From: an uncultured Succinivibrionaceae bacterium
GTDB taxonomy: Bacteria; Pseudomonadota; Gammaproteobacteria; Enterobacterales; Succinivibrionaceae
DNA length: 64,000 nt
Direction: 5' to 3'
Assembly (NCBI GenBank): GCA_949286015.1
Contig: CASEBB010000002.1
Span: 9,981 to 73,980, forward strand
Under the pieces are notes generated by a model, which searched no databases, was not told the origin of the DNA, and saw only the letters and a list, made by a program, of their open reading frames with translations. The position numbers and the translations under genes are program-made. Below are positions 11,765-41,172 of this stretch, in pieces; the first letter of the stretch is position 1; every line of letters begins with the position of its first letter.

Positions 11765-11804
11765 TGTGGGCTTTGCCCACACCATGCAGGGCGCTACCCT
11801 GCAC
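11765..11804. repeat. REP-like double palindrome (GTGGGC-TTTG-CCCAC ACC ATGCAGGG-CGCT-ACCCTGCA)
   Basis: Same architecture and words as 33995-34034. Both lie at 3' ends of genes. Confidence 0.6.
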
Positions 11805-28961: not shown

Positions 28962-29537
28962 GGTGGTGACGGCAAAAACGCTGACCGCTTTCATGAGCTG
29001 CGGCTGCTACAGATTGGCATTTTAAGAGCAATCACCTTTGCGGTCGCTCCCTTTTCCCGTACTCGTACCCGCGAGCGCGCCTTGCGCGATGCTCAGCTGA
29101 CGTTGCCCTCCCCTGTGCCACGGGGTGAGCCTGTTAGCATTCTGTCACCGCTTGTTTTTGTTACAAGCGAAAACACGCCCGATACTGCGTGCGCACAAAC
29201 CGCATTCTTTTCCCGAAAAACGCCCCTGACCTTCCCTCTTCCCTGCCCCATTATGGGGATGTGAACCTAGCGCAGAGTGAGCATAGTGCACACTATTTGC
29301 TAAAAGCAACGATATGACCGCTCCTCCCCACACAAAAGCCGTTAGAATAAGGATTCATGGCAATATGTTGTGAGGGTTGGGAGAGGGAACTTCAACTACG
29401 TCATTTCACCTCTGGGGAAAACGTAATCTTAGTAAGTAGCATCACCTGTCATCTGCGCCAGACTCGAGCTGTTCGCCATCACTGCGCTTACCCCCTTACT
29501 GATTTTGACCTTTCGTTCACGTTCGCAGGAGTCTTTA

Positions 29538-30023
29538 ATGTTTGTTAATAAGCCACAGGACATGCTGAAAGAGTACCAAAAGACCTCAGTGAATGCTGAG
29601 CTGGCGATGGCTGATCCGTACACCATCACCAAGGCACTGTTTCAAGGTGTCTTTGAGCGTTTAGGTCAAGCCAAGGGTGCCATCGCCCGTGGTGATCTCG
29701 AGGAAAAGGCGAAGAAGCTGGCCTCTGCCAGTGCCATTATTCAGCACTTAAAGGACACGCTCGATCCTACCCAAGCGCCTGAGATTGCCAAGAATCTGGC
29801 CTTTATCTACGACTTTATGTTGGCCAAGATTGCTGACGCCACCATGCAAGTCAGCGCACAGCCAATTGACGACGCCTTAAAGGTCTTCATGCCAATCAAG
29901 AACGCGTGGGACTCGATTCCACAATCGGCCATTAAGGAAGCCGAGAGTAAGATGCGTGCTAACAACCAGCACTTCCAGCACAACTACGACCCAAGCAAGA
30001 ACTTGGTCGACGGTGCCATCTAA
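29538..30023 (+). CDS. fliS: Flagellar export chaperone FliS (FlaJ in Aeromonas nomenclature)
   Basis: Start at the ATG preceded by AGGAG (MFVNKPQDMLKEYQ). The pattern Y..t.v....a.PYTITKALFQGV...A..AI..GD...K...L..A..II..L...LD.......A.NL..IY.FM...I..A........D.....MPIKNAW fits FliS. Confidence 0.85.
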   Translation: MFVNKPQDMLKEYQKTSVNAELAMADPYTITKALFQGVFERLGQAKGAIARGDLEEKAKKLASASAIIQHLKDTLDPTQAPEIAKNLAFIYDFMLAKIADATMQVSAQPIDDALKVFMPIKNAWDSIPQSAIKEAESKMRANNQHFQHNYDPSKNLVDGAI

Positions 30024-31404: not shown

Positions 31405-33819
31405 ATGTCGCAAGAAGAACAAAACCTCACAACTTCTGCCGCAGCTACCGCCGCTACGCAAGCGGCTATGTCCTCGTCAGCAGCTGCAGCTCCTGCCGAT
31501 TCAGGAAAGCAAGAAGACTTTGCGCCTGAAGCCATTAACATCGCACGTAAGACCCGTGCCGATATTAAGGCTGAATTTGTGGGGGACTTGGGCTTCGATC
31601 CTAGCGACCTCGACCAACTGTCAGCCAAGATGGGCACCGATGCCGAGCTGGACGCCAATATCCATAACTTAATGGAACTGCAACAGCAGATGGGCTCCAT
31701 GCTCATTGAGCGCTTCCAAAACAACATGGAAGCCTTCAAAAAGTATGTGCCAGACATCTACGAGCGCTTTAAGGACTTCCGTCCTTCTGAGCCGTTAGAG
31801 TTTATGTGCACAGCTAACGGCATCCCTAACCTCTTCTTCCCTGACCGCCAAGAGTTCTTCTACAAGGCCTACGACCCACAAGAGCTGTGCAACATGCAGG
31901 TCGATACCGTCATCGATCACTGTATCTTCCGCCAGCTGAAGTACTCCATCGATAACGAGAACTTAGGCCAGATTCACCACCGCTACTTAAATGAGCTGGT
32001 GAAATACCAGTCGACGCACGTTCCGCCTAACCCAAAGCCACTTTTAATCGACTCCTGCCCTATCTGCTTAATGGTAGGCTGCGGCTTAGGCTACCAAATT
32101 GGCCACCTCTACGAGCGTATCGATATCGGTAACCTCGTCTTAATTGAGCCTAACTCCGACCTCTTCTTTGCCTCGCTGCACGCCTTTGATTGGGCCAACC
32201 TGCTCGATTTCCTCCATGAGAACAATCGCGGCATCTACTTCATGGTGGGCCAAAGCAAGGATCAGGTGTTTGAGGATCTCAACTCCTTCTACACCCGCCA
32301 CGGCCGTCACTTAGCCTGCTTTATGTGGAGCTTAGTGCACTACCGCTCGCCAATCATTAATGAGATCAGCGACCGTATCATTGAGGACTACGAGCGTTCC
32401 TACGCGACCTTAGGCTTCTTTGATGACCACCTCTTTGATATCTCCCACGGTATCAACCACCTCATCAACCACACGCACTTCTTACGTCGCAATCCACCAC
32501 TGAGTGCAGAAGTCAGCAATATCCCATTCTGCATCGTGGCCAACGGCCCATCGCTGTCAAACGACCTTGAGTTCCTGCGTAAAGTGCAGGATAAGGTGAT
32601 CATCTTCGCCTGCGGCACGGCCATCGAGACGCTCTACAACGCCGGTATCCGTCCGACCTTCTATGGTTGCACCGAGCGCTTACGTGTGGTGAGCGAGCAC
32701 TTGGATTTAATTCCTGATCAGGACTTTATCCGCAGCTGCTACCTCATTTCTGCTGACGTGGTACACCCTGCAGTAGTGGCGCACTTTGATCATGCTGCCC
32801 TCTTTGGTAAGGCTGACGAGAACTTTTACTGGCTGGGTGCAGGCAAGATGTACGAGCAGTTCCGTAAGATCATGCCGATCAGCCTGATGAACCCGTTAGT
32901 AGGTAACTTAGGTGTGGCTGCCGCGACGCAGCTGGGCTTTAAGCGTATCTACCTCTTTGGTGTGGACAACGGTACCAAGCGTGAGGACAAGGAAACACAC
33001 CCAGACGAGAACTTTTTCTATAAGAAGCACAAGGCCGCTGCCTCCGCGATTCACAATCTGTCCTACACCATGGACGGCAACTTTGGTGGTACAGTCGCCA
33101 CGTCCTATCTCTACCGCTTATCGGCGCGCTACATGAACGTGATCATGCGTCATGGTGTGCGTGACTTTAAGCTCAACTACTACAACTGCTCTGATGGTGT
33201 GCTCTTAGAGCATGCTACTCCAACGCACACTGATGAGCTGGAGTGGTGGTACGACCTGCCAGATCTCGATCGCAAGAAGTTCTTTGAGTACATGGACAAT
33301 GAGAAGAGCTTTGCCCTCGAGTTCACGGACAAAGACCGTGAGAGCATGCTCGATCCTACCATATTTGACATGGTAGCCGATCTGGCTATGAAGATGCTCA
33401 AAGGTGAGACGCCAGAGACCCGTCTTGATTTTGCGCTGCGTTTACAGAGCGTGTGCGAGATGCTGTTCAAGCTGCACTCGACGCGCGACTACTACGTGGC
33501 GGACTTCTTTGATGGCTCGCTCTACAGTATGTTTGCCATGCTGATGCGCTCGCTCTTCCAGATCAAGGATGAGAAGGAAGCCATCCGCGTCACCGAGGAG
33601 CAGATCAAGTACATCATCTACTTCATTGAAGACGCGAAGAAGATCTTCCGCATGCTGCCAGACTACTGTGCTGAGGATCACCAGAAGAACTTAAATGGTG
33701 TAGTGGGCTTTGATCACCCAGACAGCAAAGCACCTCCAATCCGCATGCGCAAGGCATACGTCACTCCAGAGGACACCGCCAACTACCCAACGCGTAAGTT
33801 TGTAAAGCGCTACGAGTAG
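31405..33819 (+). CDS. maf: Motility accessory factor (Maf/DUF115 family), putative flagellin glycosyltransferase
   Basis: 804 aa. Central signature FCIVANGPSLSNDLEFL...VIIFACGTAIETLYNAGIRPTFYGCTER is typical of Maf proteins. The gene lies next to fliS. The first ~45 aa are low complexity. Confidence 0.85.
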   Translation: MSQEEQNLTTSAAATAATQAAMSSSAAAAPADSGKQEDFAPEAINIARKTRADIKAEFVGDLGFDPSDLDQLSAKMGTDAELDANIHNLMELQQQMGSMLIERFQNNMEAFKKYVPDIYERFKDFRPSEPLEFMCTANGIPNLFFPDRQEFFYKAYDPQELCNMQVDTVIDHCIFRQLKYSIDNENLGQIHHRYLNELVKYQSTHVPPNPKPLLIDSCPICLMVGCGLGYQIGHLYERIDIGNLVLIEPNSDLFFASLHAFDWANLLDFLHENNRGIYFMVGQSKDQVFEDLNSFYTRHGRHLACFMWSLVHYRSPIINEISDRIIEDYERSYATLGFFDDHLFDISHGINHLINHTHFLRRNPPLSAEVSNIPFCIVANGPSLSNDLEFLRKVQDKVIIFACGTAIETLYNAGIRPTFYGCTERLRVVSEHLDLIPDQDFIRSCYLISADVVHPAVVAHFDHAALFGKADENFYWLGAGKMYEQFRKIMPISLMNPLVGNLGVAAATQLGFKRIYLFGVDNGTKREDKETHPDENFFYKKHKAAASAIHNLSYTMDGNFGGTVATSYLYRLSARYMNVIMRHGVRDFKLNYYNCSDGVLLEHATPTHTDELEWWYDLPDLDRKKFFEYMDNEKSFALEFTDKDRESMLDPTIFDMVADLAMKMLKGETPETRLDFALRLQSVCEMLFKLHSTRDYYVADFFDGSLYSMFAMLMRSLFQIKDEKEAIRVTEEQIKYIIYFIEDAKKIFRMLPDYCAEDHQKNLNGVVGFDHPDSKAPPIRMRKAYVTPEDTANYPTRKFVKRYE

Positions 33820-33924: not shown

Positions 33925-33958
33925 AAAAAAGGCAGGTTATTGCTAACCTGCCTTTTTT
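33925..33958. terminator. Bidirectional rho-independent terminator
   Basis: AAAAAA-GGCAGGTT-ATTGCT-AACCTGCC-TTTTTT lies between convergent maf and the ProQ-like gene. Confidence 0.85.
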
Positions 33959-33994
33959 GTTGCACGCCGTGCAGTATCCAAAGGGTCGCAGATA

Positions 33995-34034
33995 TGGGCT
34001 GTGCCCACACCCCGCAGGGCTTTGCCCTGCACCC
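33995..34034. repeat. REP-like double palindrome (TGGGC-TGT-GCCCA CACCC CGCAGGG-CTTT-GCCCTGC)
   Basis: Related to 11765-11804. Confidence 0.6.
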
Positions 34035-34037
34035 ATA

Positions 34038-34112
34038 AGGGACTTTCAGTCCCTTAACCCTGGATGAGGGCCTAAGGCCCTCAACCCTTTGAGGTGAGGG
34101 GCTTCGCCCCTC
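34038..34112. repeat. Array of three short GC-rich palindromes with ~29-nt period
   Basis: AGGGACT-TTC-AGTCCCT (34038-34054), GAGGGCC-TAA-GGCCCTC (34066-34082) and GAGGGGC-TTC-GCCCCTC (34096-34112), each followed by an AACCCT-like spacer. The array lies just 3' of the ProQ-like stop codon. Confidence 0.8.
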
Positions 34113-34128
34113 ACACTCCCTAGGATCA

Positions 34129-36066
34129 CTACTGATCCTTCTTCACCGTAAAGACACGGCTGCTGCGGTGCACCACCTTTGGCCCGTTGCTCTCGTGGCC
34201 AGCACCGGCGCTGTTACCACCCTGCTGATAGCGGTTCTGGTAACCGCCTTGGCCCGAGCTTGGCTGGTAGCCACCCTGTGGGCGGTAGCTGCTGCCACCC
34301 TGTGGACGGTACGAGCTGCCGCCTTGTGGGCGATAGCCGCCACCACCTTGCTGGTAACCACCACCTTGTTGGTAGCCACCACCCTGTGGGCGGTAGCTGT
34401 TACCACCCTGTGGACGGTACGAGCTGCCGCCTTGTGGACGGTAGCCGCCACCACCTTGCTGGTAACCACCACCTTGTTGGTAGCCACCCTGTGGACGATA
34501 GCCACCGCCTTGTGGACGGTAACCACCAGCACCAGCCTGTGGACGATAACCACCACCCTGTGGACGGTAACCGCCTTGGCCTTGAGGGCGATAGCCGCCA
34601 CCCTGCTTGAAGCCACCAGGGCGACGTGGTGCCTGCTTGCGCTGCTGTTGCTTGCGCTGCTTGGCGGCCTTCTTCTTGGCCTTGGCTACGTCCTCAGCGA
34701 TCTGCTGCTTAATGCGAATGATCTCTTGACGAGCGTTCTCGCGGTGCTCCGGCTCAATCTCGCTGACCACGTTACCCTCGAGGTCAACACGAGGCACGCC
34801 ATCAGCCAGCTTCTGCAGGTAAGGAATGGAGTGGCAGTAGTTGTGGAGCATCTTGTAGCGATGCTTGTTGAAGTAGTTGTACTGCGCATCCATGCCCTCT
34901 AAGCGCTGCAGGATTTCCTGCGCAATACCAATCTTTAACGGCACGCGCTTGTCACGCTCGGTAAAGATGGCCTTAGGGAAGGCTAAAGCAAGGAAGCTTA
35001 AGAACTTGTCGCGCTCAGCCTTATCACGGGCACGACGCTCTTCAGCGGCCTTACGCTCCGCAGCGACCTTAGCGCGGCGTGCAGCACGCTCCGCTGGGGT
35101 CAGAATAGGACGGTTGTCACGCCACGAGCCCTTCTTCTTTGGCTCAGCACCGTCCCCCTCTGCACTAGGTGCCTCTCCCTCAGCAGGGGCAGCAGCACCA
35201 TCAGCGCTAGCTGGCGCTGTCTCAGCAGGAGCAGCCTCTACAGCTGCTGGGGCCACTGGAGCTTCTGCAGCTACAGGGGCAGCAGGAGCGGCTACTGGCT
35301 CAGGAGCAGCAATTGGCTCTGGCGCCTCGGCCTCGGCTGGGGCAGCGGCTGGAGCCTCAGCCTTATTGCCGATGTCATCGTCAGTGGTGGCTGGTACAGC
35401 CTCAGCTTCGACGCGATTGCCGATGTCGTCATCTTCCTCAGCATCAGCATCAGCTTCAGCAGCAGCGCCACCAGCAGCATCTTGCGCTTTGGCAGCGGCC
35501 GCTAAGGCTTTGATCTTATCTGACAGGGACGACTCAGCAGTGGCACTCTCAGCAGGGGCATCAGTTACAGCAGCTTCAGCTGCGGCGGCAGCGGCAGCAG
35601 CGTTGTCAGCCTCGATCTGGGCCTTGGTGCGACGGGTACGCTTTGGCTTGACCTCTTCACCAGCTTCAGCAGCGGCGGCAGCAGCTGCGGCAGCGGCAGC
35701 ATTGTCAGCTTCGATTTGCGCCTTGGTGCGACGGGTGCGCTTTGGCTTTACCTCTTCACCGGCGGCTGCGGCCTCAGCAGCAGCTGCAGCGGCAGCGGCA
35801 TTGTCTGCCTCAATTTGCGCTTTAGTACGGCGGGTACGCTTTGGCTTGACCTCTTCACCAGCCTCAGCGGCGGCTGCAGCAGCGGCGGCAGCGGCGGCAT
35901 TGTCAGCTTCGATTTGCGCCTTGGTGCGACGGGTACGCTTTGGCTTGGTCTCAGGAGCATCAGCGTTTACGATCACAGTACGTGGCAGGTCGTCACCTGC
36001 ACCTGTGAGCGTGCTTTTTTTTCGCGTAGCGGTTTGCTCCAAGCCGCTCGAGTTTTCGCTATCCAT
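34129..36066 (-). CDS. ProQ/FinO-domain RNA-binding protein with repetitive N- and C-terminal low-complexity regions
   Basis: Central segment FLSFLALAFPKAIFTERDKRVPLKIGIAQEILQRL...YLQKLADGVPRVDLEGNVVSEIEPEHRENARQEI aligns with E. coli ProQ (FLAERFP..F......PLKIGI......R.....YL.....G..RVDL.GN...E....H.E.A). ATG at 36066 is preceded by GGAG. Confidence 0.85.
   Translation of the reverse strand: MDSENSSGLEQTATRKKSTLTGAGDDLPRTVIVNADAPETKPKRTRRTKAQIEADNAAAAAAAAAAAEAGEEVKPKRTRRTKAQIEADNAAAAAAAAEAAAAGEEVKPKRTRRTKAQIEADNAAAAAAAAAAAEAGEEVKPKRTRRTKAQIEADNAAAAAAAAEAAVTDAPAESATAESSLSDKIKALAAAAKAQDAAGGAAAEADADAEEDDDIGNRVEAEAVPATTDDDIGNKAEAPAAAPAEAEAPEPIAAPEPVAAPAAPVAAEAPVAPAAVEAAPAETAPASADGAAAPAEGEAPSAEGDGAEPKKKGSWRDNRPILTPAERAARRAKVAAERKAAEERRARDKAERDKFLSFLALAFPKAIFTERDKRVPLKIGIAQEILQRLEGMDAQYNYFNKHRYKMLHNYCHSIPYLQKLADGVPRVDLEGNVVSEIEPEHRENARQEIIRIKQQIAEDVAKAKKKAAKQRKQQQRKQAPRRPGGFKQGGGYRPQGQGGYRPQGGGYRPQAGAGGYRPQGGGYRPQGGYQQGGGYQQGGGGYRPQGGSSYRPQGGNSYRPQGGGYQQGGGYQQGGGGYRPQGGSSYRPQGGSSYRPQGGYQPSSGQGGYQNRYQQGGNSAGAGHESNGPKVVHRSSRVFTVKKDQ
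34210..34620 (-). repeat. Coding repeats for the GGYRPQ / GGGYQQ tail
   Basis: Protein aa ~484-620: GGYRPQGQGGYRPQGGGYRPQAGAGGYRPQ..., including a larger internal duplication GGGYQQGGGYQQGGGGYRPQGGSSYRPQGG(N/S)SYRPQ. Confidence 0.9.
35572..35946 (-). repeat. About 3.8 tandem 99-bp coding repeats (33-aa unit KPKRTRRTKAQIEADN-polyA-GEEV)
   Basis: The word GCTTTGGCTT recurs at 35641, 35740, 35839 and 35938 (99-bp period). The protein shows three full units and one partial unit. Confidence 0.9.
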
Positions 36067-36957
36067 CAACTTAACTCCGATAACACCAACTGCTCTGAAT
36101 GCTAATACGCACGGTAACCAACACAGCGCGCCTTACCACCCTACAGCACCGGCTATCCTAAAAGAAATGATCACACTAGACTCGACTACTGTCTCCTAAA
36201 AGACAGTCACCTTTAGTCTAGGGCCGCATGGCAGATCGATCATTAGTAAACATAGAGCTGACATTGCCCTATGACAAAACTCTCAACAACGAAAAACTAC
36301 TTCCTGAGAAGCACAAGCCGACCACACCTTTTTGCTATGAGTACTCCGTTGAGGAAGGGTCAGCATCGCGTGGCATGCAAGAACACAGCACGCGCTTTTA
36401 GATGCGATAAAAAGCACAGAGTACTACTAATGTACAATGAGAATACCAAAAATTTCGACCAGAGAGCACATCTCACGTAAAAAATTTCTATGGCCCGTTG
36501 CAGTTACAGGCATAGCACAAGAAAGGGAGGCGCTTCAGGGCTTAAATAAGGGCAAAATGCCTGCTACAGGTGCAAGCTGCAACCACTGCTCTGACCACGC
36601 AAGGACGCTCACTCTTATGGTTTCACGTGGCATCAAGGTAGGGAAAGCTGTAGGGCAAAGAAGGGCGGGACAAATGGCAGGTGAGGAGAGGAAGCAAGGA
36701 AGCTGGAATAACGCCTGACGGCACTGTTATCTCAAGCAGATTAAGATCTGACCTCACTTCAAGGTAAAGTGCTCTCCTTGAGGTAATCAGATGCGGCGCT
36801 ATCTCTAAGGCCGGAGGCGCTGAGCTCACCTCAAGGTAACAGGGACGCCGCTAACCAGAGACAACAGCGCCTAACGGCGCTGCTATCCCCAGAGGAGCAA
36901 GGAGATTAAAGGGCAGCCACGTACTATGGCGTGGCCATACCCTGTAGAGACTACTCC

Positions 36958-38988
36958 CTACTTGCTGCTCTTACCGGCCTTTTTGACGCGCTTTTTCAGC
37001 ACTAAGCCCGAACCAGTGCGTTTAGCCTCGGCAATGGCCTTATTGGTAGCACGGGCGGCCTTTTGCGCCGAACGCTCATAGCGACGCTCGGTCTCAGCTT
37101 GACGGCGCTGCTGACGCATCTTCGATTGCGTCAGACGCTTCTGCGCTGGCTTCTCATTGGCGTAAGGGTTATCACCCTCCTTAAACTCCAGAATCACTGG
37201 CGAGCCCATGATGTGCAGCGACTTGCGGTAGCAATTGATGAGATAGCGCTTATAGCTATCTGGCATCTTTGAGACCTTATTGCCGTGGATGATGATACGT
37301 GGTGGGTTATAACCACCCGCATGGGCGTACTTGAGCTTAATGCGACGACCGCCAGACATAGGAGGCTCGTGCTCTTGTACCGCCGCCGAAAGAATGCGGT
37401 TTAAGGTCGACGAGCTATTACGACGCGTGGCCGACTCATAGGCCTCATCAATCGACTCAAAGAGGTTGCCCACACCGGTACCGTGTAAGGCCGAAATAAA
37501 GTGCACGCGCGCAAAGTCCACAAAGCCTAAGCGCAGCTCTAACTCCTGCTTAATCTCATGCTTAAAGTCAGTAGTCAGACCGTCCCACTTGTTAACGGCA
37601 ATGACCAGCGAGCGCCCCGAGTCAATGATAAAGCTCAACAGCGATAAGTCCTGATCAGTGATGTGCTCACGGGCATCAATCACTAAGATCGCCACGTTGC
37701 AGTCCTCAATCGCCTTTAAGGTCTTCACAATCGAGAACTTCTCAATGGCGTCAGAGACCTTGCGGCGCTTACGGACACCGGCCGTGTCGATCACGATGTA
37801 CTTTTTGCCCTCGCGCTCGAGTGGGATGTAAATAGAGTCACGCGTGGTGCCTGGCATGTCAGCGACCACCACACGCTCCTCACCTAAGAGGCGGTTGGTC
37901 AGCGTGGACTTACCCACATTAGGCTTACCGATCAGCGCAAACTTAATTGGCAGGTCAGCAAATGGTGTCTTGGTGCTCTCGGCAATCTTTTGTTGCTGCT
38001 CCGCGCTGAGCTCACCCTTTTGCTGGGCACGCTGGTTCTCACGGAAGTTATGCCAATCAAAGCCACCACCGGTGCGATCCACAGGCACGTTATCAAGGAA
38101 GGCGTAGCCCTGTTCCCACTCACTGTTCTCTTCACCATGGCGTTGGTGACGTGGTGCTTGTCCCTGTGCCGCGTCTTCTGCGTCGCTAAAGTCAAACTCG
38201 TCTAAGTCGAGGCCATTACCTAAGGACAGGTCAGAGGCAATATCCGTTACCTCGTCGCTAGCAGCGTCAGCGTCGGCATCAGTGTCAGTGTCAGCAGAGT
38301 CAGCAGCAGCGTCAGACTCATCATCTTCTGCGTCGTCGGTGTCATCCTCAGCAGCGTCTGCATTGCCAGCAGCAGAGGTAGTAGCAGCAGGCCGCTCATA
38401 GAGCTTGCCGGAGACATCGATCTCAAGCTCGTTGTCTTCTTCCTCGTCCTCAGCCTCCGCGATCAGATCGCTCTCCAGAGGGCCCTCTTCACGCAGGATA
38501 GGCGCAACCACCTCCTCTAAGAGGATATTGACGCCACGGCCATGCACTACTGCCGTCTGGTAGATCTCTCCTAAGCCTAAGGCATAGAAGTCAGTACCAG
38601 CGATGTCCAGATCCATACCGTCGACCTTATTGGCCACGACAGCGCATGGCTTGCCAGAGCGGCGAATGTAATCAGCGACAGCATAATCGCCAGGCATAAT
38701 GCCCGCGCGGGCATCGACCATAAAAAGCACTAAATCGCACTCATCAATGGCCAGTAAGGCCTGCGAGGTCATACGACTGGTAAGATCCGATGGTTGCTCA
38801 GCATCTTCGGCAATACCACCGGTGTCGATAACGATGTACTCGCGGCCATCGTATAAGGCACGACCGTACTTACGGTCGCGGGTTAAGCCAGGGAAGTCTG
38901 CCACTAAGGCATCACGGGTCTTAGTTAATCGATTAAAAAGCGTGGATTTGCCCACGTTTGGGCAGCCCACTAAGGCCACAACCTTCAT
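36958..38988 (-). CDS. der: Ribosome-assembly GTPase Der (EngA) with expanded inter-domain linker and basic C-terminal extension
   Basis: Start [21 protein letters not shown]. Second GTPase domain [20 protein letters not shown]-like C-terminal domain. The ~180-aa D/E/A-rich linker lies at aa ~171-350 of the ORF. Confidence 0.95.
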
Positions 38989-39530
38989 GAATAACCCCTG
39001 CACTAAAGGCCACTGCGTCAGTTTCGCTTGTTTCTACTAAGGTCGCTCACAAACGAGCTGAAACTTACGTCTCACGGCTGTAGCGCTTCTAAGTTCCCTC
39101 TACCAACATCACGCCAGCACCAGACTAGCACGCCTGTGCTTCTGTGCTCCGGTGCTTCCTGCCACCACTTGGCGTGATGACAGTTATCGCTGGTAATAAT
39201 GACGGGAACAACAAAATCTTACGACCTCACGGTCGGAACCACGGCAGTACAAAGCGACAAAGCTACAACGCACCTCTGGTGCCTTTGCAGCTACGCCGAG
39301 AGTATCCCAAAAAGCAAATCCCAAAGGAGGTAACTGCCTGCAATCAGGTGTTTTATCCTGAGAGGCGGTGTTTGCTGCGGCGCTATCCTCAAGATAAGAC
39401 GCCGTCAGGCGCTTTTTAGGTTACCTACTCTACGCCCATTAGCTAATAAACTGCTCAAACTGCATATTTTAGCGTTTTCTACGGCTAAGGGCAAAGCTTA
39501 GCCCCACACCGCAGCTCCGCTCTTTACCGC

Positions 39531-39630: not shown

Positions 39631-41172
39631 TTACTCTTGGCCTTCCGGCTCATCATCCATAGCGGCACGCACACCTGGGGCGATACCAAAGCCCGAGACC
39701 TGCTTACGACGCTCTTCCTCGTAAGCCTTCACACGGGCCTCGTACTCAGCACGGGCCTTAGCAGCCTCGGCCGCTGCACGACGTTGTGCTGCAATCTGTG
39801 CCTCTTGCTGTGCCACCGCACGGCGAATAGCAGAACGACGGGCCTCTAACTGCTCTTGGCTCATCGACGATGGCGCATAAATACCACCATCGTACACACC
39901 TGGGTGATTGAGCGTTAAGCCCTGCCCCGCACTGGCCAGCAACGCTTCATTAGCGCTCTCCACTTGAGCGGCTGTGGAGTTCTGGCCTTGGGCCTCGTAA
40001 CGCAGGCAGCTTAAGGTGCCATCACGCGCTAAGAGGTATAAGTTACCGTTTTTGACCTGACCCTCGACGTAGTAGCCCGAGCTATCTAAGGACTCCTTGT
40101 AATCAATGGAGCCATCCTGCATATCGAGGAAGTACACATAGCCCTCGTAGTCACCCACCACGGCGTAATTACCGTAGACCACTGGGCCCGTGACATTACG
40201 ATAGCTTAACTGGGTGTTAGCCCAGCGCTGACTGTTGTCAGAGCGATTGATGCAGTACACGGTACCGTCATCAGAGGTCAGCACCAGCGAATTCTCATCA
40301 AAGCCAAAATCACGGCTCGACTGATAGCCTAAGCGGGCGGCGTAGTTGAAAGTACCGAAATCGTACTCCACTAAGCTGCCAGCAAAGGAAGCGGCATAGA
40401 GCATATTGCCTAACAGCAGTGGCGAGGTCGAAACATCAGCCACACGCTCTAAGGCATTCGCACCAATAGCCTCACCCACAGTAATTTGGTTAACCGTAGC
40501 GCCATTGCTCTGTAAGAGCACGTTGACACGGCCCGAGGAGGTGCCGACTAACACGTACTCATCACCTACTGCCAGCGGATTGGCTTGCGCTCTTAAGCGC
40601 AGCGCTTGTGGCGCATCACCGGTCACCCATAAGAGCTCACCGCTTAAGGTATCAAAAGCGCTGAAGTTACCACGGCTATCTAAGACAAAGAGCTTAGAGC
40701 CAGAAGCATTAAAGGTTGGGCGTGCTACCACCTCCGCCTCTAAGTAGTGCTTCCACGCAATGGAGCCGTCAGCACTGTTGAGTACGTAGATGTAACCGTT
40801 TTCCGAGCCAATAGCGAGCTTGGAGCCATTAATGGCTACGCCACCTGATAAGCGTGCTGAGCGCTTATCCTGATTCTCAGCTTCTTTGCTTAAGTCCACT
40901 TCCCAGAGGCGATCACCGTTGCTCTGGGTAAAGGCCATCACATCACCATTACGGGCAGCCGTGTAAACATTGTGCTCGTCAAAGGCCGCCTCTAACTCCG
41001 AGAAGAAATCGGATACGCCACCTGTGGTGCTCGACCAGAGCTCAGCGACCGCAAAGCGGTTTTCGACCTCAGGTGATTCTACAGGTTGAAAACGGGTATC
41101 AGAGCTGGAGCAACCTGCAAGCAGCAGTAAGGCAGCAGCGGGCAGAGCTATGGCGAGTTTGGACTTGAGCAT
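39631..41172 (-). CDS. bamB: Outer-membrane protein assembly factor BamB, with ~120-aa C-terminal extension
   Basis: Lipoprotein signal MLKSKLAIALPAAALLLLAGCSS. PQQ-like beta-propeller repeats. Conserved position between yfgM and der. A/E/R/Q-rich tail. Confidence 0.9.
   Translation of the reverse strand: MLKSKLAIALPAAALLLLAGCSSSDTRFQPVESPEVENRFAVAELWSSTTGGVSDFFSELEAAFDEHNVYTAARNGDVMAFTQSNGDRLWEVDLSKEAENQDKRSARLSGGVAINGSKLAIGSENGYIYVLNSADGSIAWKHYLEAEVVARPTFNASGSKLFVLDSRGNFSAFDTLSGELLWVTGDAPQALRLRAQANPLAVGDEYVLVGTSSGRVNVLLQSNGATVNQITVGEAIGANALERVADVSTSPLLLGNMLYAASFAGSLVEYDFGTFNYAARLGYQSSRDFGFDENSLVLTSDDGTVYCINRSDNSQRWANTQLSYRNVTGPVVYGNYAVVGDYEGYVYFLDMQDGSIDYKESLDSSGYYVEGQVKNGNLYLLARDGTLSCLRYEAQGQNSTAAQVESANEALLASAGQGLTLNHPGVYDGGIYAPSSMSQEQLEARRSAIRRAVAQQEAQIAAQRRAAAEAAKARAEYEARVKAYEEERRKQVSGFGIAPGVRAAMDDEPEGQE

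Follow-up and report, generated by a model that had tools for sequence, protein, structure and literature searches.

FinO/ProQ proteins are one major family of bacterial RNA chaperones, of which, to our knowledge, only a handful of members (FinO, ProQ, RocC and NMB1681) have been studied. A gene in a 64,000-nucleotide stretch of Succinivibrionaceae DNA (the window) encodes a 645-aa protein in which such a domain is embedded in ∼500 residues of conserved low-complexity sequence. The host genus is Anaerobiospirillum, a gut commensal and occasional human pathogen; we know of no work on its RNA biology.

The gene and its FinO domain

The minus strand is open over 34129..36069, and translation from the ATG at 36066-36064 gives a complete coding sequence of 645 aa plus stop (34129..36066), a call supported by the intact frame, by a Pfam ProQ/FinO match (E=2.2e-18) and by pN/pS. 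A TTG lies one codon 5' of this ATG, and a Shine-Dalgarno-like GGAG, read directly from the sequence, stands 8 nt before it (36075..36078, minus strand); GGAG is found just 5' of the start in most orthologous loci too. The frame is likewise uninterrupted in L001, an independent MAG whose orthologue is 93% identical and carries the same four N-terminal units. The 34129-36066 region is also overlapped by long antisense ORFs, which its GCN/GGN-rich codon composition explains. The N-terminal leader (aa 1-40; 35947..36066, minus strand), predicted from its sequence and by AlphaFold to be disordered, contains the A8 run at 36015-36022 that a first-pass annotation of this DNA had placed near the 5' end of the gene; it codes for RKKS. 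In an exact-sequence look-up, the window protein and two orthologues were absent from the collection.

The same annotation had proposed a central FinO-like domain, and profile and structure searches bear this out. Pfam PF04352 matched aa 353-458 (34693..35010, minus strand) with 66.7 bits against a gathering score of 27, covering profile positions 5-105 of 109, and the PLKIGI and RVDLEGN motifs lie within the domain as described. Sequence matches in the PDB were exclusively to ProQ, RocC, Lpp1663 and NMB1681, with ProQ 5nb9 the best (E=3e-10) and RocC 7rgt at E=1e-7. An AlphaFold model of aa 315-482, built from a 100-sequence alignment, reached a pLDDT of 95 and a pTM of 0.82. The top 26 PDB matches of this model in Foldseek were all RocC, Lpp1663, NMB1681 or FinO, the best being RocC (E=3e-6, TM 0.75-0.83, rmsd 2.5 Å). 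Modelling the full protein with a 6-sequence alignment gave a poor core and no significant Foldseek match (E about 0.09). K378, Y416 and R426 align with E. coli ProQ K35, Y70 and R80, which are needed for RNA binding (PMC7192607). Among 149 family members Y416 never varies, and conservation of K378 and R426 reaches at least 90%; the equivalents of K54 and R58 are ambiguous owing to an alignment gap in the K401/R403/K405 region. Sequence and model show the central domain to be a genuine FinO fold that keeps the RNA-binding residues of ProQ.

Basic helices are predicted on both sides of this core. An Arg-rich conserved segment (aa 315-352; 35011..35124, minus strand) appears in the alignment and model as a long helix running into the domain; the helix spans aa 324-362, with a pLDDT of about 97 and residues that are invariant in the orthologue alignment. 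Foldseek aligned 139 columns to FinO 1dvo, and these probably include the N-terminal helix of FinO. On the other side, the C-terminal helix of the domain (aa 439-478 in the model) is prolonged by a Lys/Arg/Gln-rich patch with a net charge of +10 (aa 459-482; 34621..34692, minus strand), which corresponds to the lysine-rich patch noted originally.

Whether the protein should be called ProQ is a separate matter. No ProQ_C (PF17516) was found in it by Pfam at E<=1, and AlphaFold predicted nothing folded after aa 478, with aa 483-641 disordered. An HMM of the E. coli ProQ C-terminal domain, which finds that domain in 41 of 149 relatives (Pfam ProQ_C in 38), matched no member of the clade. All three lines agree with the initial remark that no Tudor-like domain is evident. 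The NCBIfam equivalog NF003434 scored 58.7 bits against a cutoff of 127, with the match confined to aa 352-480, and only 3 of the 20 best non-clade matches have a Tudor domain. In a neighbour-joining tree of 108 domain columns the clade was monophyletic in 50 of 50 bootstraps; support for any sister group was at most 18%, and the frequent sister candidates lacked a Tudor domain. The first-pass assignment thus holds at the level of a FinO/ProQ-domain protein, whereas the strict name ProQ is not justified because of the sub-equivalog score, the missing Tudor domain, the different synteny and a phylogenetic placement with no well-supported sister group.

Like enterobacterial ProQ, the giant protein is a chromosomal FinO-domain protein with a basic region after the domain, and it shares about 35% identity with E. 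coli ProQ (5nb9) over the domain, including the three residues named above. It differs from ProQ in length (645 versus about 230 aa), in the central rather than N-terminal position of the domain, in the absence of the ProQ_C Tudor domain and in the addition of N-terminal basic repeats, an acidic linker and a Tyr-rich tail. Its gene adjoins der and maf, not prc, the neighbour of E. coli proQ. The closest structures to the modelled core are RocC (7rgt/7rgu) and FinO (1dvo), with TM about 0.8 and rmsd 2.5 Å. RocC likewise has a long unstructured C-terminal extension, which is functionally needed, and FinO has a long basic helix ahead of its core; the extensions of the giant protein are unrelated to these in sequence and several times longer. 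RocC and FinO each serve one dedicated sRNA system (competence and conjugation, respectively), whereas nothing at the giant FinO protein suggests a link to either process.

We know of no 'exuberantly complex' FinO/ProQ protein that has been characterized. Uncharacterized proteins of this class, in which a FinO domain is joined to extra folded or disordered modules in understudied proteobacteria, are depicted by Liao & Smirnov (2023; Fig. 4B, PMC9977716), and the giant protein resembles them in these respects; Succinivibrionaceae and Aeromonadales have no occurrence in that review.

The low-complexity regions and selection upon them

Four 33-aa units (aa 41-172; 35551..35946, minus strand) were delimited by TRF, core alignment and AlphaFold. 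Each consists of a basic KPKRTRRTKAQIEADN core, an Ala-rich helix and an acidic GEEV spacer. TRF reported a 99-bp period with 3.7 copies (35577-35947), and the earlier description was of three full units and one partial unit. The repeats are real, but four full motif cores, starting at aa 41, 74, 107 and 140, describe them better, the divergence of the fourth unit being confined to its Ala-rich spacer. AlphaFold predicted helices at aa 49-68, 82-101, 115-134 and 148-168 (pLDDT up to 90) and disorder in the basic segments between them. The segment KPKRTRRTK, in which six of nine residues are basic, leads into the predicted helix TKAQIEADNA(n); this unit may resemble the arginine-rich motif of the lambda and P22 N peptides. 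The suggestion that the DNA repeats are near-identical and recently expanded is not supported. The 99-bp units are 71-94% identical, differing by 6-28%, and the repeat architecture is genus-wide. The four 16-aa cores are identical in amino acid sequence, all 34 pairwise nucleotide differences between them being synonymous and none non-synonymous, which indicates long-term purifying selection. Only a 108-bp duplication in the tail looks recent. Length polymorphism, also predicted, is modest among close relatives (one GGYQQ unit and linker indels), while complete genes of different species have three to five N-terminal copies.

Between the repeats and the Arg-rich helix lies an acidic Ala/Pro/Glu-rich linker, defined by composition, with a net charge of -23 (aa 173-314; 35125..35550, minus strand). 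The duplicated DDDIGN[RK] motif reported in it is present at aa 212 and 229 (35413-35433 and 35362-35382, minus strand), and DDIGN-type motifs occur in 2-4 copies in 7 of 10 orthologues. Along the whole chain the charge blocks run +5, -23, +6, +10 and +13.

A disordered, Gly/Tyr-rich tail after the domain was correctly noted. As delimited by composition and AlphaFold, it occupies aa 483-622 (140 aa; 34201..34620, minus strand) and consists of G (about 37%), Q (about 19%), Y (13%), P (9%) and R (9%), with 11 YRPQ and four GYQQ motifs. Its 18 Tyr lie at a median spacing of 7, and it further contains 12 Arg and a single acidic residue (D or E); I, L, V, M and W are absent. The 108-bp duplication was located by TRF at 34271-34488 (minus strand; 2.0 copies, 96% identity). 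Tails of the orthologues (n = 10) have 18-25 Tyr at a spacing of 5-7 and 7-15 Arg, acidic and aliphatic residues being nearly absent, and their Tyr content is 13-16% throughout. The label 'RGG/FUS-like' proved too strong: RGG occurs 0 times in the window protein and 0-1 times in orthologues, [G/S]Y[G/S] triads are absent from all 10 tails, and Tyr is instead followed by Q, R or N 13-19 times per tail.

The likeness to FET proteins (FUS/EWS/TAF15) is limited to a G/Q/S/Y-rich composition, even Tyr spacing and a scarcity of aliphatic and, Arg apart, charged residues; GGYQQ also resembles the SYGQQS repeat of EWS. FET proteins differ in that the tail described here interleaves Arg with Tyr in one segment and is attached to a bacterial FinO domain instead of an RRM or zinc finger. 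A bacterial parallel is Acinetobacter Hfq, in which an RNA chaperone core is also followed by a long Gly/aromatic/Gln-rich repeat tail, and in which redundancy of the GGFGGQ repeats matters for fitness, RNA binding and autoregulation (PMC11617691). Hfq is, however, an Sm hexamer rather than a monomeric FinO protein, and its tail has Phe, no Arg and an acidic tip where the giant protein has Tyr and a basic hydrophobic end. That end is a conserved C-terminal peptide, ...GPKVVHRSSRVFTVKKDQ (aa 623-645; 34132..34200, minus strand), recognized by orthologue comparison. All Anaerobiospirillum orthologues, and likewise the divergent orthologue P0072, finish with a GPKV..R..VF.[VI]KK-type sequence; outside the clade such an ending was found, loosely, in one of 145 other FinO representatives.

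Comparison with L001 gave pN/pS values well below 1 in every segment: 0.00 for the tail and C-terminal peptide, 0.16 for the repeat region and 0.32 for the linker, which evolves fastest and has 11 indel positions. All 13 nucleotide changes in the tail are synonymous (0 non-synonymous), and its length differs by one 5-aa unit (GGYQQ). Other species preserve the C-terminal peptide together with the composition and Tyr spacing of the tail, although not its sequence. We conclude that all low-complexity parts of the giant FinO protein are under purifying selection.

Distribution, genomic setting and a shared basic peptide

The same architecture and der/maf synteny were found in 11 other loci, which argues against both an assembly artefact and a peculiarity of one strain. 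Every locus with flanking DNA has hisS-yfgM-bamB-der ahead of the gene and a convergent maf/fliS block, and repeat number agrees between the two independent assemblies, the window and L001. The gene is chromosomal, probably vertically inherited, and intact and syntenic across Anaerobiospirillum. Its neighbours are inflated as well, with low-complexity insertions in Der (681 aa, with an acidic insert) and BamB (513 aa), so the added sequence may in part follow from a tendency of the whole lineage and not from a specific function.

Distribution was assessed by exhaustive phmmer search in place of a word-indexed search, which returned low-complexity noise and three true relatives with the full protein and two fragments with the FinO region alone. 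The next FinO relative outside the clade is about 34% identical in the FinO domain, so ligand preference may differ. The G/Y/Q tail, the KRTRR peptide and the DDIGN motifs were found in 0 of the 145 nearest FinO representatives. When E. coli Hfq and ProQ were compared by tblastn with the window and the orthologous loci, ∼0.2 Mb in all, no Hfq and no second ProQ were detected.

RNA folding of the 3' UTR (33925..34128, minus strand; -126.8 kcal/mol, z=-9.0) revealed five tandem short GC-rich hairpins (about 33985-34115) and a bidirectional intrinsic terminator of the form A6-stem-U6 (33925-33958), established by folding and missed by a consensus terminator scanner. A similar terminator is present in L001, L003, L004 and L005, while the hairpin array is common to L001 alone. 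The array was considered as a conserved FinO ligand and rejected, as it is not genus-wide and similar hairpins occur in another intergenic region; these two properties suggest a REP-like element. A conserved 5' UTR element or upstream sRNA was also dropped, the upstream spacer showing no sequence conservation past the close relative L001. Rfam matched no family anywhere in the window, including the 890-bp spacer ahead of the gene and the hairpins of the 3' UTR.

The basic peptide of the N-terminal units is not confined to FinO proteins. Rho, RNase E and DEAD-box helicases carry the KPKRTRRTKAQIEAD peptide in nearly unchanged form, as do many phage proteins. A parallel is the charge-blocked, disordered C-terminal tail of alphaproteobacterial RNase E (P0008, P0011), a BR-body scaffold, which has near-identical (A/E)KPKR(T/K)RR(T/K)KA(E/Q)IEAD units with Ala/Glu/Pro-rich spacers between them; RNase E differs in its catalytic and binding domain, in having degradosome sites and in lacking a Tyr-rich segment. 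Phage carriers match PHROG families annotated as HTH DNA-binding protein, RusA-like resolvase, head-tail connector and tail protein; a PHROG scan of seven viral carriers gave mostly unannotated families. The presence of the peptide in proteins annotated as virion or DNA-binding components indicates that it is not RNA-specific. One further carrier, with the peptide in its linker, is judged SSB-like from its DDSPF ending alone, and P0072 has AT-hook-like PKRRGRPPKAK peptides. With DUF7302 (PF23976, mycobacteriophage small proteins) the window protein has in common only the C-terminal KPKRTRRTKAQIEADNAAAEAAK peptide of the DUF7302 members, and the DUF7302 HMM gave no match to it at E<=1. Neither the peptide nor DUF7302 returned a match in string searches of the literature. 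Near letter-identity over 15 residues between a gut gammaproteobacterium, alphaproteobacterial RNase E, Rho, helicases and mycobacteriophage proteins points to an unrecognized portable module of nucleic-acid-binding proteins.

Proposed function and alternative explanations

We propose, with a probability of roughly 0.6, that the giant FinO protein is a ProQ-like RNA chaperone in which disordered arms replace the linker and Tudor module. Homology and composition suggest that it binds RNA, promotes annealing and self-associates. The FinO core would hold the protein at the 3' end of sRNAs and mRNAs, on the terminal hairpin and its single-stranded tail, which are the established target of the family. 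Multivalent, sequence-unspecific RNA contacts and self-association may come from the two long basic helices beside the core, from the four arginine-rich KPKRTRRTK-helix units and from the Tyr/Arg-rich tail. Together the arms would stand in for the linker and Tudor domain of ProQ, the N-terminal helix of FinO and the C-terminal extension of RocC, serving RNA annealing and strand exchange and possibly local RNA concentration, with the acidic linker (-23) probably tuning the basic arms as a counter-ion within the molecule or a mimic of nucleic acid. In FinO-family proteins generally, extensions confer chaperone activity and the core merely binds (reviewed in PMC9977716). The occurrence of the KPKRTRRTKAQIEAD peptide in nucleic-acid enzymes and phage proteins fits the proposal, and the GGFGGQ repeats of Acinetobacter Hfq (PMC11617691) offer a functional precedent.

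The composition of the arms also raises the possibility, which we regard as doubtful, that Tyr/Arg stickers and charge blocks drive RNA-dependent phase separation, so that the protein would be a scaffold organizing sRNA/mRNA bodies, a bacterial equivalent of the FET proteins or of the BR-bodies formed by RNase E. The 10 tails, with their conserved composition, Tyr spacing and Arg content and a pN/pS of 0, are consistent with this, as are the alternating charge blocks and the basic peptide common to the alphaproteobacterial RNase E C-terminal tail. There are precedents in the disordered C-terminal region of RNase E, which is reported to drive BR-body condensation, and in the G/Q/P-rich linker of E. 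coli SSB, which supports condensation (PMC7584906, PMC12143593). Composition is merely suggestive, however; canonical FUS [G/S]Y[G/S] and RGG motifs are absent, the Pro after each Tyr-Arg in the window species may weaken pi/cation contacts, and a literature search returned reviews and unrelated papers, with none tying FinO-family proteins to condensates. Scaffold and chaperone functions are compatible, not mutually exclusive. A broader two-part proposal, equally tentative as a whole, is that the protein is a FinO-anchored analogue of FET proteins whose Tyr/Arg tail and charge-blocked N-terminus gather RNA 3' ends into condensates, and that the KPKRTRRTKAQIEAD-helix is an undescribed short, mobile module binding nucleic acid or some partner found universally. 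This module would have been attached, by phages and by bacteria from several phyla, to Rho, RNase E and DEAD-box helicases, and also to the SSB-like protein and to phage proteins of resolvase- and virion-annotated PHROGs.

The chaperone proposal gives the arms a function, whereas they could be neutral expansions of an ordinary ProQ-type protein, with linkers inflated by replication slippage in a GC-rich lineage prone to repeats and only the core mattering. The inflated Der and BamB next door, the indels and top pN/pS of the linker, the unalignable tail and linker of distant species and the recent 108-bp duplication would fit such an origin. We consider it unlikely, since the basic cores differ by 34 synonymous changes to 0, the tail by 13 to 0 from L001, and module order, tail composition, DDIGN and the C-terminal peptide are retained at about 45% protein identity; a plain ProQ of this kind would, moreover, have no Tudor domain as a fallback. 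Somewhat less probable still, in our analysis, is a primarily DNA- or nucleoid-associated protein whose peptide units and tail would bind DNA, the FinO domain being secondary. The PHROG matches, the putative SSB-like carrier and the AT-hook-like peptides of P0072 point in that direction, and the Hfq C-terminal extension, which is reported to bridge DNA (PMC12257945), offers a precedent. Yet the FinO core is the best conserved part of the protein, its RNA 3'-end pocket residues are intact, and the same peptide is found in enzymes that act on RNA (Rho, RNase E and DEAD-box helicases). An assembly artefact or pseudogene is very improbable: repeats of 99 and 108 bp are prone to short-read collapse or expansion, and long antisense ORFs overlap the region, but the frame is intact between a Shine-Dalgarno sequence and a terminator, L001 matches the window protein in its four N-terminal units and departs from it in the tail by a single 5-aa unit, and the architecture recurs in eleven further loci.

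For the family, the clade represents an extreme natural experiment: low-complexity sequence under selection, ∼500 residues in all, takes the place of the Tudor module, and part of it is a tail of Tyr/Arg 'stickers' like those that drive RNP granules in eukaryotes. Study of the clade could reveal whether a FinO-family chaperone uses multivalency or condensation. The giant FinO protein is a natural test case for bacterial RNA-protein condensates, and condensation, if true, would be a previously unknown mesoscale mode of action for the ProQ/FinO family.

An intact gene with low-complexity arms

The FinO gene forms one uninterrupted frame at 34129..36069 on the minus strand (ORF analysis of the window), and translation from the ATG at 36066-36064 gives 645 aa, as the first-pass annotation had claimed. 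A GGAG lies 8 nt 5′ of the ATG and a TTG one codon 5′ of it, and the A8 run noticed near the 5′ end of the gene is present at 36015-36022. Long antisense ORFs over the gene, on the plus strand, are by-products of GCN/GGN-rich repeats.

The protein opens with a leader (aa 1-40), followed by four units (aa 41-172; 35551-35946, minus strand), each consisting of KPKRTRRTKAQIEADN, 8-11 Ala/Glu residues and GEEV. The core of these units is referred to hereafter as the basic peptide. An Ala/Pro/Glu/Asp linker of net charge -23 (aa 173-314) carries DDDIGNR at aa 212 and DDDIGNK at aa 229. It leads through an Arg-rich segment (aa 315-352) into the FinO core (aa 353-458), and beyond this lie a Lys/Arg/Gln patch of net charge +10 (aa 459-482), a tail (aa 483-622; G 37%, Q 19%, Y 13%, P 9% and R 9%, with 11 YRPQ and 4 GYQQ) and a C-terminal peptide (aa 623-645) ending in GPKVVHRSSRVFTVKKDQ. 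Tandem Repeats Finder reported a 99-bp period with 3.7 copies at 35577-35947 and a 108-bp period with 2.0 copies, 96% identical, at 34271-34488.

The earlier description of 34129-36066 was correct in every statement, with one refinement: the N-terminal units, counted as three and a partial one, comprise four complete motif cores. The recent expansion deduced from near-identical 99-bp DNA does not hold for these units, which are only 71-94% identical in DNA; it does fit the 108-bp tail duplication.

A FinO fold that keeps its RNA-pocket residues

Pfam PF04352 (ProQ/FinO) matched aa 353-458 with 66.7 bits (gathering score, 27), in agreement with the initial family assignment, and no second significant Pfam domain was found in the protein. 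Sequence matches in the PDB were the E. coli ProQ N-terminal domain (3e-10), Legionella RocC (1e-7), Lpp1663 and NMB1681. The core was poor in a whole-protein AlphaFold model based on six sequences, and Foldseek gave no significant match to that model, in which the leader, the greater part of the acidic linker (~aa 198-310) and the tail (483-641) were predicted to be disordered and each TKAQIEADNA(n) stretch to be a helix. Modelling of aa 315-482 with 100 homologues gave a pLDDT of 95 and a pTM of 0.82, with helices of 39 and 40 residues flanking the core on its N- and C-terminal side, respectively. The best 26 Foldseek PDB matches of this model were all FinO-family structures; RocC matched at E=3e-6 (TM 0.75-0.83, rmsd 2.5 Å), and FinO itself aligned across 139 columns.

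By alignment to the PDB sequence, K378, Y416 and R426 correspond to K35, Y70 and R80 of E. coli ProQ, which are required for RNA binding (PMC7192607). Y416 is invariant among 149 homologues, and K378 and R426 are kept in ≥90% of them. The core is a bona fide FinO fold that keeps its RNA-pocket residues. We consider that the protein is a FinO-type RNA binder, with a probability of about 0.9; a rival reading is a role in DNA or nucleoid binding.

The absence of a Tudor-like domain, noted at first pass, was borne out twice. Pfam, which detects the domain (ProQ_C) in 38 of 149 relatives, found none in this protein, and an HMM built from the E. coli ProQ C-terminal domain scored 41 relatives as positive and none within the clade of Anaerobiospirillum orthologues. 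The label 'ProQ' does not hold in the strict sense, since the NCBIfam ProQ equivalog matched over the domain only and below its cutoff (58.7 against 127 bits) and the Tudor domain is missing.

Conservation and selection of the arms

A scan of one genome per species recovered nine relatives, all of them Anaerobiospirillum (Succinivibrionaceae); the Candidatus A. pullicola orthologue is 93% identical. The order of modules is common to all orthologues whose relevant ends are in the assembly. The six complete genes encode 3-5 [K/P]KRTRRTKAQIEAD units, and two genes that lose their 5′ end at a contig edge encode at least two. Acidic linker (usually with 2-4 DDIGN-type motifs), FinO core and basic patch follow in constant order, then a tail of 129-188 aa with 13-16% Tyr and an ending of the GPKV..R..VF.[VI]KK type. 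The acidic motif D-D-D-I-G-N-[R/K/H] (35362-35433, aa 212-235) occurs in 2-4 linker copies in 7 of 10 orthologues; those at L002, L005 and L006 lack it. Its acidic run followed by Ile is loosely similar to the C-terminal tip of SSB, DDDIPF. P0002 ends in EERRVGKECRSRWSPYH right after the basic patch, without a tail, which suggests chimerism or misassembly at the contig end and not a real tail-less variant.

The gene order hisS-yfgM-bamB-der-[FinO gene] is kept wherever flanking DNA is available, including a 5.17-Mb ENA contig (ERZ27273503) and L012, the locus of a more divergent orthologue. This protein, P0072 (L012 6001-7923), has two tandem FinO domains and AT-hook-like PKRRGRPPKAK peptides where the window protein has KPKRTRRTK units, and retains a G/Y/N/S tail with a PKVVRRKTFTIKKN ending. 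On the other side the gene faces a convergent maf/fliS flagellar block: a Maf-type flagellin glycosyltransferase (31405-33819, plus strand, 804 aa, Maf_flag10_N and MptE-like domains) and fliS (29505-30023, plus strand) lie immediately downstream, so that the gene borders a flagellar glycosylation/assembly block in all species examined. Its 3′ UTR (33925-34128, minus strand; RNA fold z=-9.0) contains five tandem short GC hairpins with GGGC-nnn-GCCC cores and, beyond them, a bidirectional A6-stem-U6 terminator. The hairpin array is common only to the window and L001, the closest orthologous locus, and looks REP-like because similar hairpins occur at 11765-11803. The spacer between der and the FinO gene is non-coding and 0.6-1.5 kb long in every species (36067-36957 in the window; equivalents in L001-L012). 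It has no Rfam match and no sequence conservation past the closest relative, and holds one weak sigma-70-like site at 36277-36249.

The readings as an assembly artefact or a pseudogene were rejected because an independent assembly gives the same number of repeats. Neutral low-complexity inflation finds encouragement in the neighbouring genes, which are inflated as well. An acidic insert of ~180 aa, rich in Asp/Glu/Ala and poorly conserved across species, separates the two G domains of Der (EngA; 36958-39003, minus strand, 681 aa), which also has a basic C-terminal extension of ~70 aa; BamB (39631-41172, minus strand) has 513 aa, compared with ~390 aa for a typical BamB. These lengths suggest a lineage-wide tendency toward low-complexity inflation. 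Against neutrality in the FinO gene, the window's four motif cores are identical in protein while all 34 of their 34 pairwise nucleotide differences are synonymous, the tail differs from L001 by 13 synonymous and no non-synonymous changes plus one GGYQQ indel, and pN/pS against L001 is 0.16 over the repeat region, rising to 0.32 in the linker. These substitution patterns show that the low-complexity regions are kept by selection. The gene is intact, conserved and selected, and its product has flanks that are disordered yet constrained; the main interpretation of the first-pass annotation was right, and the finding is real.

The architecture is unusual. When 1.84 billion representatives were searched exhaustively with the FinO region (phmmer), 426 matched at E≤1e-3; only five clusters fell below 1e-20, every one from the clade, and the next match beyond it stood at 8e-16 with ~34% identity. 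Beyond the clade, lengths among the 145 nearest representatives run to a maximum of 514 aa, with a median of 192 aa; all of them lack the G/Q/N/S+Tyr window, the KRTRR peptide and the DDIGN motif. All 50 of 50 bootstraps of an NJ tree built on the domain recovered the clade as monophyletic; candidate sister groups, themselves weakly supported, also lack the Tudor domain. Two or three tandem FinO domains occur in the unrelated representatives P0073, P0076, P0077, P0078 and P0082, P0073 combining two with a Tudor domain, which makes multi-FinO proteins a recurring architecture. FinO proteins of 'exuberantly complex' build are known from understudied proteobacteria, according to the 2023 review of the family (PMC9977716), which does not mention the Anaerobiospirillum lineage. 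Neither Hfq nor a canonical ProQ is encoded within the 0.2 Mb examined (window and orthologous loci). The protein is a genus-wide FinO-domain protein whose low-complexity architecture is unique and under selection.

Possible roles of the tail and the basic peptide

The tails of the ten orthologues hold 18-25 Tyr (median spacing, 5-7), 7-15 Arg, ≤4 acidic and ≤2 aliphatic residues, and are like FET proteins in composition and sticker spacing. They contain 0-1 RGG and no [G/S]Y[G/S] triad, so that by motif definition they are neither RGG boxes nor FUS-type SYG repeats; of the earlier 'RGG/FUS-like' label, only composition and Tyr spacing survive. Among bacteria, the nearest analogue is the tail of Acinetobacter Hfq with its GGFGGQ repeats, whose redundancy is functionally important (PMC11617691).

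In the established binding mode of the family (PMC9977716), the core would clamp 3′-terminal hairpin/tail structures. The four ARM-like units and the Tyr/Arg tail, along with the basic helices on either side of the core, may add multivalent, unspecific RNA contacts and self-association, and could thereby stand in for the linker and Tudor module as an annealing or strand-exchange device, with the acidic linker perhaps buffering or auto-inhibiting the basic arms. Chaperone activity in FinO proteins resides in the extensions, not the core (PMC9977716). We lean slightly towards the proposed annealing role for the extensions of the window protein. True condensate formation seems less likely than not. 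Condensation by bacterial nucleic-acid-binding proteins has precedents in SSB, with its G/Q/P-rich linker, and in RNase E, with its charge-blocked tail; our literature search turned up no paper that connects FinO proteins with condensates.

Unexpectedly, protein searches revealed that KPKRTRRTKAQIEAD(N/K)AA... also occurs outside this protein. The 15-aa KPKRTRRTKAQIEAD recurs almost letter for letter in P0004, P0005, P0008-P0012, P0015-P0071 and L013-L023, distant lineages included. A Rho factor (P0004) has a near-identical copy in its N-terminal region, DEAD-box helicases (P0005, P0009, P0012) have one in their C-terminal tails, alphaproteobacterial RNase E proteins (P0008, P0010, P0011) in their tails and mycobacteriophage DUF7302 proteins at their C-terminus. 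Many proteins of 60-150 aa also carry one; these match PHROG families annotated as connector, tail, HTH DNA-binding or RusA-like. Viral contigs carry further copies; one carrier, with the peptide in a linker, was judged probably SSB-like from its DDSPF ending alone. Literature text searches for the peptide strings and 'DUF7302' gave no match among the papers covered. The basic peptide presumably resembles the N-type ARM peptides of lambda and P22, and we interpret the unit, an arginine-rich arm joined to an amphipathic or Ala-rich helix, as a portable putative nucleic-acid-binding module. This putative module, shared across phyla, is a secondary lead in its own right.
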